IMG/VR virus record: IMGVR_UViG_2690316166_000002
Reading direction: 5' to 3' (one strand)
Origin: a virus
Taxonomy: Duplodnaviria > Heunggongvirae > Uroviricota > Caudoviricetes
Length of the DNA: 5,910 nucleotides
A program made the position numbers and the translations under genes. Below the pieces are notes generated by a model. That model searched no databases. It saw nothing but the letters and a program-made list of their open reading frames with translations, and was not told where the DNA came from. Below are positions 2,978-5,910 of the stretch, one piece after another (the stretch's first letter is position 1; each line of letters starts with the position of its first letter).

Positions 2978-3112
2978 ATGTGCTTTCAGGGCTGCTAACA
3001 TCTTACGGAATTTCTTCACCCCGCCAATACCTAACTGGAAGGTCATGATAATAATAAAATCATNNNNNNNNNNNNNNNNNNNNNNNNNNNNNNNNNNNNN
3101 NATCGGGAAGAT
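2978..3112 (-). CDS. Continuation of the lysozyme (C-terminal lobe) in a different minus-strand frame; true 3' end hidden in N block 2567..2977
   Basis: The minus-strand frame with codon 3046..3044 is open from 3112 down into the mask and reads ...DFIIIMTFQLGIGGVKKFRKMLAALKAH, which aligns with T4 lysozyme ...[30 protein letters not shown]. It is offset by one nucleotide from the N-terminal frame; the change of frame must occur in or beside the 38-nt N block 3064..3101. Confidence 0.55.
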
Positions 3113-3359
3113 TTAACCCTAATGTCTGTACCTGCATAATTGTTTTGGCTAAATCGCGAGATAGTAACTTGTCTGCTTCGCTTTCAGTAATGCCAGTACT
3201 AAAATCTTCTCCCGCCTGAATTAAGTGACCATATCCAATAGTACTACATCCTAAACTATCAGCATATGGATAGAATTTCCCATTTCTGAAGTACTTCAAA
3301 TTTGCCTGATACTCTTTAGTACCTTCATATTCTTTTAATCGTGTTTTTAAATCGCTCAT
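3060..3359 (-). CDS. T4-type lysozyme (GH24 endolysin), N-terminal catalytic portion
   Basis: Minus-strand ORF from ATG (3359..3357) reads MSDLKTRLKEYEGTKEYQANLKYFRNGKFYPYADSLGCSTIGYGHLIQAGEDFSTGITESEADKLLSRDLAKTIMQVQTLGLNLPD. This carries the GH24 signature: Glu in LKEYEG, Asp in YAD and Thr in STIGYGH, corresponding to T4 lysozyme E11/D20/T26, and ITESEADKLLSRDL parallels T4 ITKDEAEKLFNQDV. In this frame a TGA stop falls at 3062..3060 right after the N block, giving only about 99 aa, which is too short for a complete GH24 enzyme. Confidence 0.8.
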   Translation of the reverse strand: MSDLKTRLKEYEGTKEYQANLKYFRNGKFYPYADSLGCSTIGYGHLIQAGEDFSTGITESEADKLLSRDLAKTIMQVQTLGLNLPDXXXXXXXXXXXXX

Positions 3360-3369
3360 TTACTAAATA

Positions 3370-3388
3370 CCTATAATGAATTTATAGG
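3370..3388. promoter_or_regulatory. Inverted repeat with an embedded TATAAT in the divergent intergenic region; candidate bidirectional promoter or operator
   Basis: cctataa-tgaat-ttatagg is a 7-bp perfect inverted repeat with a 5-nt spacer. TATAAT lies at 3372..3377 on the + strand, about 19 nt upstream of ATG 3396; on the - strand the same region reads TATAAAT upstream of the lysozyme ATG at 3359. No clear -35 was found. Confidence 0.3.
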
Positions 3389-3395
3389 AATATTT

Positions 3396-3830
3396 ATGAT
3401 GAGTGAATGGAAATACTCGGATGATTGGAGCGAGGAGGAAATGTTATCCGGTGAATATGCTGGTTTCGTTTATATCTTTCAGTTTGAGGATGGTTCTAAT
3501 TATGTCGGTGCTAAGCAAATCTATCAGCGGGTTAAGGATGCGAGAAAGCTAAAGCCCACTTCAAAGGAAAATGGCTGGCGTGAGTACCTCAGTAGTTCCA
3601 ATGTCGTTAAAAACAAAATTGAAAATGGTGAACAGTACTCAAAAACGATTCTATGGTGCTTCGCAACTATGCGAGAGGTAATGATTGTAGAGGCAATACT
3701 GATCCTTCATCAGATGCTTAAACCGGAATGTTTGAATCTGGCAATGATGAGTAAGATTAGATCACCAAATGCAAAGGATAAAAAAAGACTACTCGGAATA
3801 GTACAGGAACTATTGGAGTACTTGAATTGA
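3396..3830 (+). CDS. GIY-YIG-like nuclease-domain protein (144 aa), possibly a homing-endonuclease relative lacking a DNA-binding domain
   Basis: ATG 3396 is preceded by AGGAA (3386..3390). Residues GFVYIFQFEDGSNYVGAKQIYQR fit the GIY...(10-11 aa)...YIG pattern with a following Arg at about +7, comparable to I-TevI GIYQIK...KVYVGSAKDFEKR. Downstream, MREVMIVEA and LN could correspond to the catalytic Glu and Asn. This is motif-level recognition only. Stop is TGA 3828..3830. Confidence 0.6.
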   Translation: MMSEWKYSDDWSEEEMLSGEYAGFVYIFQFEDGSNYVGAKQIYQRVKDARKLKPTSKENGWREYLSSSNVVKNKIENGEQYSKTILWCFATMREVMIVEAILILHQMLKPECLNLAMMSKIRSPNAKDKKRLLGIVQELLEYLN

Positions 3831-3839
3831 GGTAAATAT

Positions 3840-4418
3840 ATGGCAAGTGGAATAAATGGGATTGGTAGTATAAGGAACTATATACAAACGCAGGGAGTTA
3901 GATTAAATAATCAATTCCAGAATGAAATAATTAAACGTTCCAAGCTACTATCCCAAAGAATGCAGGGTGATTTGAATAATAGCGTTGACCGTGGGGCAGT
4001 GGGCTTTACTCAACGTTCCATCCTTTTCTTCTATAGAAAGGTTGGGAGAAATTCAGTTACATCGACCATCATGGTTAAAGATATTCAGGCTAAGTACCTT
4101 TATCAAGTACTGGTACAGCCAAAGGCAATTGATAAGTTTATACCTACTTCATCTACAAGATTAACTAAGCAGGGCAACATTTCAGGACTGAAAAAGAATC
4201 TTTTAAGTGAACGATATAAGGTAGTGAAGGGTAAGAATGGTAAAGAACGATTAATTGATACCGCAAAGAAAGATACCAAGAAGAAAACCAAACGTGTAAT
4301 TGGCTTACGTGAGAAGAAACAACGTCGCCTTATCTATGACTTCTATAAGGAAGCCAATGATGGTGTAAGGGTAATTATGAGCGGTATTCAGGGAACATTC
4401 AGGATAAGTAGACAATGA
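3840..4418 (+). CDS. Hypothetical protein (192 aa) with a Lys/Arg-rich C-terminal half; function unknown, possibly nucleic-acid binding
   Basis: ATG 3840 is preceded by GAGG (about 3829..3832). The ORF is clean; the C-terminal half is strongly basic (KGKNGKERLIDTAKKDTKKKTKRVIGLREKKQRRL). Stop TGA 4416..4418 overlaps the next start (ATGA). Confidence 0.7.
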   Translation: MASGINGIGSIRNYIQTQGVRLNNQFQNEIIKRSKLLSQRMQGDLNNSVDRGAVGFTQRSILFFYRKVGRNSVTSTIMVKDIQAKYLYQVLVQPKAIDKFIPTSSTRLTKQGNISGLKKNLLSERYKVVKGKNGKERLIDTAKKDTKKKTKRVIGLREKKQRRLIYDFYKEANDGVRVIMSGIQGTFRISRQ

Positions 4419-4726
4419 ATTTTGAGCAACATTATGGTGATTTAATAAGCAAGATTAAGCTAAATGGCATGACACCAGATGGTAATAGTATGCCAATTAA
4501 CAAATGTTTTCTTGATAAGAAATTTCAAAAGGTCGTTAAGAAAAGTAATTATCAGATTGATAGCTATATGAACGTTATTTATGAGAAGAAGAAAGATTTC
4601 AAAGTTGGTGAAGTACTTGAATGGGAATTACAGGGTGAAAAGATGCCTGTATTTCTAATTGAGAGTAAAAAGCTCTTTGTGAAGGGTAAACATTTTTGGG
4701 TATATGCCGTGGGGATTATTGAATGA
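4415..4726 (+). CDS. Hypothetical protein (103 aa), translationally coupled to the upstream gene
   Basis: ATG 4415 overlaps the upstream stop as ATGA (4415..4418). The ORF runs to TGA 4724..4726. No recognisable motif. Confidence 0.7.
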   Translation: MNFEQHYGDLISKIKLNGMTPDGNSMPINKCFLDKKFQKVVKKSNYQIDSYMNVIYEKKKDFKVGEVLEWELQGEKMPVFLIESKKLFVKGKHFWVYAVGIIE

Positions 4727-4768
4727 TTAGTATATTGATTGAGTTTCTGAAGTCAGGATTGGATTTTT
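4723..4768 (+). CDS. Possible start of a further coupled gene (MISILIEFLKSGLDF...), running into an N block
   Basis: ATG 4723 overlaps the previous stop as ATGA (4723..4726), the same arrangement as at 4415. Only 15 codons are visible before N block 4769..4802. Confidence 0.3.
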
Positions 4769-4804
4769 NNNNNNNNNNNNNNNNNNNNNNNNNNNNNNNN
4801 NNTT

Positions 4805-4921
4805 TTCATTAAGAAGAAAACTATTGAACAGGAAGTAAAGAAAACGAATGTAGAAGGGCAGATTGAAACGAATAAAGAAGAGATTGAAAAGGTAACATTC
4901 CACTGGCGTAATGCCCTCGGT
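4805..4921 (+). CDS. Internal fragment of a + strand coding region between two N blocks (Lys/Glu-rich peptide)
   Basis: Frame 2 is open across the whole unmasked island and reads FIKKKTIEQEVKKTNVEGQIETNKEEIEKVTFHWRNALG on the purine-rich strand. The other two + frames stop inside the island. The two - frames that are open here give Phe/Leu-rich antisense-like peptides. Its relationship to the ATG at 4723 is unknown because the frame differs across the 34-nt mask. Confidence 0.4.
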
Positions 4922-5774
4922 NNNNNNNNNNNNNNNNNNNNNNNNNNNNNNNNNNNNNNNNNNNNNNNNNNNNNNNNNNNNNNNNNNNNNNNNNNNNNNN
5001 NNNNNNNNNNNNNNNNNNNNNNNNNNNNNNNNNNNNNNNNNNNNNNNNNNNNNNNNNNNNNNNNNNNNNNNNNNNNNNNNNNNNNNNNNNNNNNNNNNNN
5101 NNNNNNNNNNNNNNNNNNNNNNNNNNNNNNNNNNNNNNNNNNNNNNNNNNNNNNNNNNNNNNNNNNNNNNNNNNNNNNNNNNNNNNNNNNNNNNNNNNNN
5201 NNNNNNNNNNNNNNNNNNNNNNNNNNNNNNNNNNNNNNNNNNNNNNNNNNNNNNNNNNNNNNNNNNNNNNNNNNNNNNNNNNNNNNNNNNNNNNNNNNNN
5301 NNNNNNNNNNNNNNNNNNNNNNNNNNNNNNNNNNNNNNNNNNNNNNNANNNNNNNNNNNNNNNNNNNNNNNNNNNNNNNNNNNNNNNNNNNNNNNNNNNN
5401 NNNNNNNNNNNNNNNNNNNNNNNNNNNNNNNNNNNNNNNNNNNNNNNNNNNNNNNNNNNNNNNNNNNNNNNNNNNNNNNNNNNNNNNNNNNNNNNNNNNN
5501 NNNNNNNNNNNNNNNNNNNNNNNNNNNNNNNNNNNNNNNNNNNNNNNNNNNNNNNNNNNNNNNNNNNNNNNNNNNNNNNNNNNNNNNNNNNNNNNNNNNN
5601 NNNNNNNNNNNNNNNNNNNNNNNNNNNNNNNNNNNNNNNNNNNNNNNNNNNNNNNNNNNNNNNNNNNNNNNNNNNNNNNNNNNNNNNNNNNNNNNNNNNN
5701 NNNNNNNNNNNNNNNNNNNNNNNNNNNNNNNNNNNNNNNNNNNNNNNNNNNNNNNNNNNNNNNNNNNNNNNNNN

Positions 5775-5910
5775 GATTCGTATAAAAATATTGATTTTAT
5801 CATATCTGGACATTTGCCGATTTCCGATAATAGAAACATTCAGGTGTTTGGTGGTGCGAATCATAATCTTCTTTGTCATTTCAATTATGATGAGCTACCA
5901 TCCGATAAAG
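5775..5910. other. Coding-like unmasked island at the right edge; strand and frame unresolved
   Basis: Four of six frames are open across this 136-nt island. The + frame gives DSYKNIDFIISGHLPISDNRNIQVFGGANHNLLCHFNYDELPSDK; the - strand has ATG at 5879 (MTKKIMIRTTKHLNVSIIGNRQ...) with no convincing RBS. The island is too short and AT-rich to decide between them. Confidence 0.25.

Follow-up and report, generated by a model that had tools for sequence, protein, structure and literature searches.

A domain-only GIY-YIG nuclease gene at a fixed position in lambda-like prophages of Enterobacterales, and its possible role in cutting branched DNA

Short phage genes encoding GIY-YIG proteins are routinely annotated as homing endonucleases and then ignored. 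The stretch of DNA under study (5,910 nucleotides of the Caudoviricetes record IMGVR_UViG_2690316166_000002 in IMG/VR, hereafter the window) carries at positions 3396..3830 of the + strand a gene that starts with ATGATG and encodes a domain-only protein of 144 aa with the motif GFVYIFQFEDGSNYVGAKQIYQR. The original prediction, made from the letters alone, had placed this reading frame, its GIY-YIG signature and its divergence from the lysozyme gene correctly at every coordinate; it had considered a degenerate or domain-only nuclease of the homing type, or a defence or anti-defence nuclease, located at a mosaic junction and preceded by a palindromic spacer. The window contains N-masked stretches, including most of the 3' half of the lysozyme gene and most of the region downstream of 4769, and it maps at 100% identity to IMGVR_UViG_2671180405_000018 (L089), relative to which its N runs are not length-preserving.

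The profile search and the structure prediction that had been proposed as checks both placed the protein in the GIY-YIG superfamily. Residues 5-104 match profile positions 1-102 of the 123 positions of PF19835 (Pfam SegE_GIY-YIG) with E=2.1e-16 and a score of 60.7 bits, compared to a cut-off of 25 bits, and two PHROG families match at ~1e-14, one of them annotated as homing endonuclease. In the AlphaFold2 model (pLDDT 84, pTM 0.79, with 14 family members in the alignment), the elements follow the order beta(23-30), beta(35-41), alpha(69-76), beta(81-89), alpha(92-106) and alpha(126-143), and the predicted fold comprises a three-stranded sheet with flanking helices, that is, a beta-beta-alpha...beta-alpha core. 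A profile search of PDB sequences with the family alignment gave no meaningful match, and the hhalign comparison of the family with the I-TevI catalytic domain was not significant (E=0.88); its sole aligned segment sets the SSS motif beside Y64 against the residues after I-TevI H40, which is the structurally expected match. The distances from Y64 to E99 (35 residues) and from E99 to N114 (15 residues) are the same as those of H40-E75-N90 in I-TevI. Overall, the 144-aa protein is a GIY-YIG nuclease domain.

The idea of a degenerate protein does not stand up to the pattern of residue conservation. Predicted catalytic residues are Y26, Y36, (R45/K47), Y64, E99 and N114, and among 72 distinct full-length variants from the fetched loci (39-100% identity), Y26, Y36, G38, K40, W61, Y64, S67, S68, E99, I103, N114 and K120 are invariant in 72/72. 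The canonical arginine is not strictly kept, position 45 being R in 60 variants, G in seven, K in four and H in one, and position 47 is K in 70 and R in two. Together with a dN/dS of 0.06-0.07 (pairs with unsaturated dS), which indicates strong purifying selection, this conservation argues that the protein is neither degenerate nor decaying. Within the C-terminal helix 126-143, L132, Q137, L140 and L143 are invariant in the 14-sequence alignment, and this helix is a candidate interface that may serve dimerisation or the binding of a partner.

The suggestion that the protein consists of the nuclease domain only and lacks a C-terminal DNA-binding region held up well. No second Pfam domain was found in it, a single predicted helix follows the core, and the nearest named relatives, the Seg-type free-standing homing endonucleases of T4-like phages (RB16p243, 359 aa; Bp7 gp184, 271 aa), are matched at residues ~14-128 only. 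Their catalytic domains are homologous to it, with 32-47% identity over ~60-110 residues and the same GIY...YIG motifs, Glu and Asn. In contrast, Seg proteins are 271-359 aa long, carry C-terminal DNA-binding regions and occur sporadically between conserved genes, whereas the protein analyzed here has 144 aa, a fixed position, coupling to a structural gene and a history of strong purifying selection. The protein probably goes back to a Seg-type homing endonuclease that kept its catalytic domain and lost its DNA-binding tail, or to an ancestor common to the two. Library proteins of 300-305 aa were considered as lysozyme-GIY fusions and discarded; their N-terminal halves contain no lysozyme domain and they are probably over-extended gene calls.

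A comparison with related genomes had been named as the means of recognizing the presence/absence pattern of a homing endonuclease, and what it revealed instead was conserved synteny. The close cluster representatives of the protein (24 of 142-148 aa, plus one 99-aa fragment) come from E. coli, Enterobacter, Phytobacter, Lelliottia, Rahnella and metagenomes, and PF19835 is present in 24/24 close homologues; in all, the family comprises more than 100 syntenic homologues, with 63 IMG/VR loci. In a first set of 80 loci, the gene occupies the same position in 80/80. As this set had been ascertained via the GIY-YIG protein itself, we repeated the distribution test via the downstream neighbour p192, and a full GIY-YIG gene lies immediately upstream in 49/51 of the IMG/VR loci found in this way. 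Genomic loci retrieved via p192 (Pluralibacter, Phytobacter, Kluyvera, E. kobei, the E. cloacae complex and Serratia) all have it directly upstream as well. In the other two of the 51, L096 and L109 (recovered a second time as L194 and L195), an internal deletion has fused residue 16 to residue ~111 and so removed the whole catalytic core, in frame in L109; no clean gene-less allele was found in this prophage family. The loss of the core in one lineage implies that the nuclease is not indispensable for prophage maintenance.

Alleles of the gene have also been reshuffled relative to their neighbours, as exemplified by L094, L097 and L173, in which the GIY-YIG protein is 39% identical and p192 71%. 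This reshuffling of alleles, together with the Seg-type nearest homologues and with PADLOC and PHROG matches to homing-endonuclease models, would speak for a selfish or formerly selfish gene. The near-complete occupancy, the deletion origin of the only 'empty' alleles, the small size without a DNA-binding domain and the low dN/dS all speak against it. Taken together, these results show that the gene is not a roving homing endonuclease but a conserved, strongly selected gene of lambda-like enterobacterial prophages. The GIY-YIG superfamily and PF19835 are already known; the member described here lacks both the DNA-binding domain and the sporadic distribution that characterize homing endonucleases.

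The carriers of the gene form an uncultured family of lambda-like siphovirus prophages of ~32-38 kb in Enterobacterales. When the region was compared by megablast with INPHARED phages and with complete E. coli genomes, no match was returned; neither set thus contains a cultured phage or a complete genome close to the family. The layout, read along IMGVR_UViG_3300048924_000240 (35.6 kb; L110, L091, L019), begins with a short early region (proteins of 235, 61 and 102 aa, a 175-aa HNH_3+NUMOD4 protein, a 510-aa P-loop protein and a DUF6998 protein), continues with membrane-protein morons, a Nu1-like small terminase and a gpA-type large terminase, and then with a head-tail joining protein, a lambda-family portal and an HK97-type protease-capsid fusion, followed by the tail genes up to an 1100-aa tail tip and, finally, by the block containing lysozyme, the GIY-YIG gene and p192. 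The prophage ends with this block, and what follows within 0.1-3 kb is either a variable region or host genes, the chromosomal site differing between members. A transposable (Mu-like) lifestyle was considered for these varied insertion sites and set aside, no transposase being present in the parts read (the best contig minus its left 1.3 kb). Large serine recombinases flank some family members.

Gene order in the first 80 loci is tail tip, p98, DUF8377, DUF2730, lysozyme, GIY-YIG gene, p192, p103 and p97. The T4-lysozyme-type endolysin is readable in the window at 2978..3359 on the - strand, its start codon ending at 3359; the unmasked part matches Pfam Phage_lysozyme (1.8e-7) as well as PHROG lysozyme families, and the full gene encodes 149 aa in relatives (L001:9515-9964). 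Downstream of the nuclease gene, p192 (3840..4418, + strand) encodes a probable tail completion protein of the HK97 gp10 / lambda gpZ / 80alpha gp51 class. Its predicted structure has an HK97-gp10/lambda-gpZ tail completion protein as best match and its hhalign alignment with lambda gpZ is weak (E=0.09) and colinear, while a profile search of PDB sequences with the p192 alignment gave no meaningful match. The start of p192 in the window lies 9 nt past the stop codon of the GIY-YIG gene, with a GAGG that overlaps this stop codon, and in many relatives the stop overlaps the p192 start or is separated from it by a short gap; the two genes are translationally coupled.

The + strand cassette continues with p103 (4415..4726), a conserved partner of p192 whose start overlaps the p192 stop (ATGA), and with the N-interrupted p97 (readable part 4723..4921), a holin-like membrane protein with its membrane region at the C-terminus; the p97 homologue at L001:11328-11621 falls narrowly short of the cut-off in its match to Pfam GTA_holin_3TM (5e-5). 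NCBIfam holds no model for the GIY-YIG protein, p192, p103 or p97. Beyond p97 begins the variable region, which contains p264, an HNH protein like CBASS, Shedu or PDC-M68A effectors, and the methyltransferase-like p241. Between the tail operon and the block lies a strong bidirectional terminator (L001:9476-9515), beyond the 3' end of the lysozyme gene, and relatives with co-oriented lysozyme have a terminator there too, which marks the block as a transcription unit of its own. As p192 resembles a tail completion gene, p97 resembles a holin gene and a terminator precedes the block, the GIY-YIG gene is placed among late functions, and its expression would be expected to be late from these neighbours. 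The arrangement puts tail-completion genes together with lysis genes at the prophage end in this uncultured lambda-like family of Enterobacterales.

Lysozyme alone is inverted in most family members, the window included, and is on the + strand, 3-6 nt from the start of the GIY-YIG gene, in L035, L064, L067, L079, L082/83 and L086/87. The proposal of a mosaic junction therefore survives only in the limited sense that the orientation of one gene varies; gene order is conserved and there is no GC discontinuity.

Between the start codons of the two divergent genes lies an AT-rich spacer of 36 nt (3360..3395), which probably includes, at least in part, the start signals of both. The perfect 7-bp inverted repeat described for it exists (3370..3388; CCTATAA at 3370-3376, loop TGAAT, TTATAGG at 3382-3388), includes TATAAT at 3372-3377 and forms a hairpin with a predicted energy of -6.6 kcal/mol. 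One interpretation would be that of a functional operator or bidirectional promoter serving lysozyme and nuclease. As the terminator lies beyond the lysozyme 3' end, the + strand cassette would indeed need a promoter of its own between the terminator and 3396, and a -10-like TATAnT is kept at the same place in 5/6 spacer types.

The repeat itself, however, is neither above chance nor conserved. Counting perfect 7-bp arms with loops of 3-12 nt, we found two inverted repeats in the readable part of the window compared to 3.7 +/- 2.2 in first-order Markov simulations, and 8.5% of shuffled versions of the AT-rich spacer hold such a repeat. In a relative with 97% identity, an A-to-G change yields CCTATGA and TATGAT and breaks both the repeat and the TATAAT, while the spacers of other relatives have TATATT, TATAGT or TATAAG with different or absent pairing, and the spacer is missing altogether where lysozyme is co-oriented. 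In a sigma-70 scan, the TATAAT had no -35 element to pair with, and promoter counts equalled those of shuffles. What all spacer types have kept is an AGG/GGA at a distance of 6-10 nt from either start codon, with AT-rich sequence after it; for the GIY-YIG gene, the likely ribosome-binding site read from the sequence is the AGGA at 3386..3389 on the + strand, 6 nt before the ATG. Each arm of the palindrome thus holds one of the mirrored Shine-Dalgarno (AGG) regions of two divergent genes, which alone explains its symmetry, and a dedicated operator or bidirectional promoter appears doubtful to us. The palindrome would rather represent two mirrored translation-initiation regions, possibly overlapping with activator-dependent divergent late promoters.

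Only one cultured-phage record, PQ671644 (DCP80), contains a p192 homologue (30% identity, 1e-13). There, a related tail tip (30% identity) is followed by a 155-aa protein and by homologues of p192 and p103, and this 155-aa protein carries Pfam Endonuclease_7 together with the T4 endonuclease VII dimerisation domain. With the p192 homologue of DCP80 as query, we recovered a sister prophage clade from Klebsiella, E. coli, Kluyvera, Serratia and metagenomes, whose p192 homologues are 26-30% identical to p192 and are likewise followed by a p103 homologue. In the five contexts examined (DCP80, Klebsiella, E. coli and a metagenome contig among them), the p192 homologue is preceded by an endonuclease VII of 151-165 aa, either immediately or with a single ORF of 61-70 aa in between, and both the catalytic and the dimerisation domain are present in 4/4 sister loci scanned. 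The IMG/VR loci retrieved via the sister-clade p192 homologue give the same picture: endonuclease VII is found in 16/17, inverted in two of those, with no nuclease at that place in the remaining locus, L250. Two much more divergent p192 homologues, L253 and L254, also lack a neighbouring nuclease.

Two unrelated nuclease folds thus stand upstream of one tail-completion gene, the slot being filled almost throughout in both clades, and the simplest reading of these gene orders would be a non-orthologous displacement within a single late nuclease function. T4 gp49 (endonuclease VII), the classic enzyme that resolves junctions and removes branches and on which packaging depends, shares with the GIY-YIG protein its small size (~150 aa), its late context and, in the sister clade, the slot upstream of the p192 homologue. 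The folds are unrelated (beta-beta-alpha-Me/HNH versus GIY-YIG), and it is by position only that a known resolvase occupies the same place in related genomes. The presence of endonuclease VII in this slot suggests that the GIY-YIG protein, too, may cut branched DNA, an activity within the reach of its fold, as GIY-YIG proteins resolve junctions in Slx1 and HIGLE (PMC9071465).

We therefore propose, with a probability of roughly 0.4 and from comparative sequence data, that the gene encodes a non-mobile, domain-only GIY-YIG endonuclease, predicted to be active, which as a fixed late gene would act as a branch or junction cutter for packaging. By a structure-specific cut of branched or junction DNA late in infection, it would render concatemers packageable; its late timing, its substrate and its part in packaging are all points that we infer. 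Support for a resolvase comes from the swap at this position in a single sister clade. The branch-cutting reading is weakened by the deletion alleles, by the nuclease-less locus L250 and by the existence of homing enzymes with an endonuclease VII motif.

This last point also bears on homing, since proteins with an endonuclease VII motif can be homing endonucleases, as in F-CphI (PMC6083498), and the slot upstream of p192 could then be an insertion hot spot for selfish nucleases in both clades. The 144-aa protein would under such a scenario be a domesticated remnant, or it would home by means of another DNA-binding protein. The sister-clade enzymes, however, possess the T4 endonuclease VII dimerisation domain typical of a resolvase, their slot is filled in 16/17 loci rather than sporadically, and the GIY-YIG gene is coupled in translation to p192; that it is a selfish or formerly selfish homing endonuclease gene is, in our estimate, very improbable.

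A role nearer to the virion DNA end can also be conceived, in which the nuclease would assist the terminase in cutting cos or act with the tail completion protein in the neck. A precedent exists in HK97, where the HNH protein gp74 helps the terminase to cut cos. The large terminase of the present family, however, is lambda gpA-like and carries its own GpA_nuclease domain (4.5e-43), which makes a terminase-helper role unlikely, and lambda-type terminases are not known to need an HNH partner for cutting cos. Moreover, ~20 kb separate the GIY-YIG gene from the terminase genes, circularization of the map does not bring them side by side, and both deletion alleles and a nuclease-less sister locus exist. 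We accordingly rate such a packaging or DNA-end accessory as quite unlikely.

A nuclease directed against other DNA, be it host DNA to be degraded or the DNA of competing phages in exclusion, defence or anti-defence, has its models in two known enzymes. T4 endonuclease II (DenA), a domain-only GIY-YIG protein of 136 aa, is the product of an early gene and nicks host cytosine-containing DNA; the present protein has no sequence-level match to it and a different genomic context. PD-T4-3, the GIY-YIG defence nuclease borne by prophages (PDB 9u75), has 248 aa with an extra domain, whereas the protein studied here matches no PADLOC defence family, lacks a domain for sensing or for reading modifications like that of PD-T4-3, and is encoded alongside lysis and tail-completion genes in a conserved late block rather than in a defence island or in the variable region. 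The defence or anti-defence nuclease considered in the original prediction thus finds in PADLOC only a weak match to a generic homing model ('HEase', 4.4e-5), and action on foreign or host DNA fits poorly with the junction-resolving endonuclease VII that takes the place of the protein in the sister clade. On this evidence, a nuclease against other DNA is unlikely.

Cutting of branched DNA during packaging remains the reading that we prefer, and a wider version of it can be formulated, which we regard as a tentative and rather doubtful generalization: domain-only SegE-like GIY-YIG proteins might constitute an unrecognised class of phage junction-resolving or debranching enzymes, a viral counterpart of Slx1 that is interchangeable with endonuclease VII and that here would act late, jointly with the tail-completion protein contacting the DNA end. 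Slx1 and At-HIGLE are eukaryotic GIY-YIG resolvers of Holliday junctions, and their similarity to the protein described here is distant, with no homology outside the core. Slx1 has a RING/PHD domain and usually needs Slx4.

Among 1.84 billion cluster representatives, 430 match the profile at E<=1e-3 and only 10 at <=1e-30, so that the family itself is narrow. Many of the weaker matches among those listed, however, are 125-160 aa long, and the short ones that were scanned contain PF19835 and no other Pfam family; domain-only forms of PF19835 appear to be common and unstudied.

In the prophages described here, the short GIY-YIG gene behaves as a vertically inherited, strongly selected core late gene. 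If the proposed cutting of branches is true, the set of folds by which phages resolve junctions would grow to include GIY-YIG, a testable function would be at hand for the numerous domain-only proteins of the PF19835 type within the 430 library matches, and the family would provide an example of the catalytic domain of a homing endonuclease that has been domesticated, or of the reverse. Demonstration of the activity would assign a function to a large set of genes now annotated as 'hypothetical' or 'homing endonuclease'.

The window contains N-masked runs (229-314, 465-488, 2567-2977, 3064-3101, 4769-4802 and 4922-5774), and its alignment to the 100%-identical contig IMGVR_UViG_2671180405_000018 (L089) revealed that the length of these runs differs from that of the underlying sequence: one run of 38 N replaces only 7 nt, and another of 411 N replaces 348 nt. 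Open reading frames of the window that span N runs are therefore artefacts of the masking.

In most members of the family of lambda-like prophages carrying the GIY-YIG gene, including the window (2978-3359), the lysozyme gene is inverted, whereas it lies on the + strand, abutting the GIY-YIG gene, in the relative loci L035, L064, L067, L079, L082/L083 and L086/L087. This difference in orientation is a single-gene inversion of ~0.45 kb within an otherwise fixed gene order. In the relative L001, a strong bidirectional intrinsic terminator (L001:9476-9515; aaaaaaaGGCATAGTA...TACTATGCCtttttttt) separates the DUF2730 gene from the 3' end of the lysozyme gene; the corresponding site in the window, near 2870-2910, is masked. 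Comparable terminators are found ahead of the block in relatives with a co-oriented lysozyme gene.

Natural alleles of the GIY-YIG gene with residues about 17-110 deleted, and hence devoid of the entire catalytic core, were encountered in IMGVR_UViG_3300011818_000026 (L096:13760-13925) and 3300011848_000032 (L109:18920-19075). In the latter, the deletion is in frame, and the remaining 49-aa open reading frame joins the first 16 residues to the C-terminal helix. In two cluster representatives among the library proteins, P0130 and P0132 (300-305 aa), the GIY-YIG domain is C-terminal and follows ~160 residues that match no Pfam family and are not a lysozyme. These two proteins are probably gene calls that run on too far, across the lysozyme gene in antisense.

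A better candidate than the GIY-YIG gene for a truly mobile homing endonuclease would be a protein of 175 aa in which HNH_3 (4e-10) and NUMOD4 (9.5e-9) domains are recognised, encoded in the early region of IMGVR_UViG_3300048924_000240 (L110:1932-2459) between small early genes on one side and a 510-aa P-loop protein on the other. The same viral genome encodes a 1016-aa protein (L091:5689-8739), of which the N-terminal 150 residues resemble major tail proteins (PHROG 158), whereas matches in the remainder are to tail-fibre repeat families. Since its gene directly precedes that of the ordinary 157-aa major tail protein, the protein may represent a decorated tail-tube variant.

Among the sister-clade prophages, which carry a T4-type endonuclease VII gene just upstream of the p192 (probable tail-completion) homologue, this gene is inverted in two loci (L247/L248:2953-3417), and in one locus (L250:2653-3682) no nuclease gene precedes the one for tail completion. 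PQ671644.1 (Escherichia phage DCP80) is filed under Straboviridae/Tevenvirinae, yet its 18.6-26.3 kb segment (L081) holds a lambda-like siphovirus block comprising tail tip, endonuclease VII, tail-completion homologue, endolysin and Nu1-like protein, and the p192 homologue encoded there shares 99% identity with P0109, which comes from a 30-kb metagenome contig. This suggests that PQ671644.1 was either misfiled or assembled as a chimera.

The holin-like gene is followed by a variable region (about 5077-5870 in the window, where it is mostly masked; L001:11682-12476 and L001:12992-13717). It encodes p264, whose N-terminal HNH domain matches PADLOC models of the CBASS SAVED-HNH, PDC-M68A and Shedu effectors (down to 4e-23), and, in relatives, additionally the N6-adenine-methyltransferase-like protein p241. 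This variable region at the prophage end has the appearance of a hotspot for defence genes or morons.
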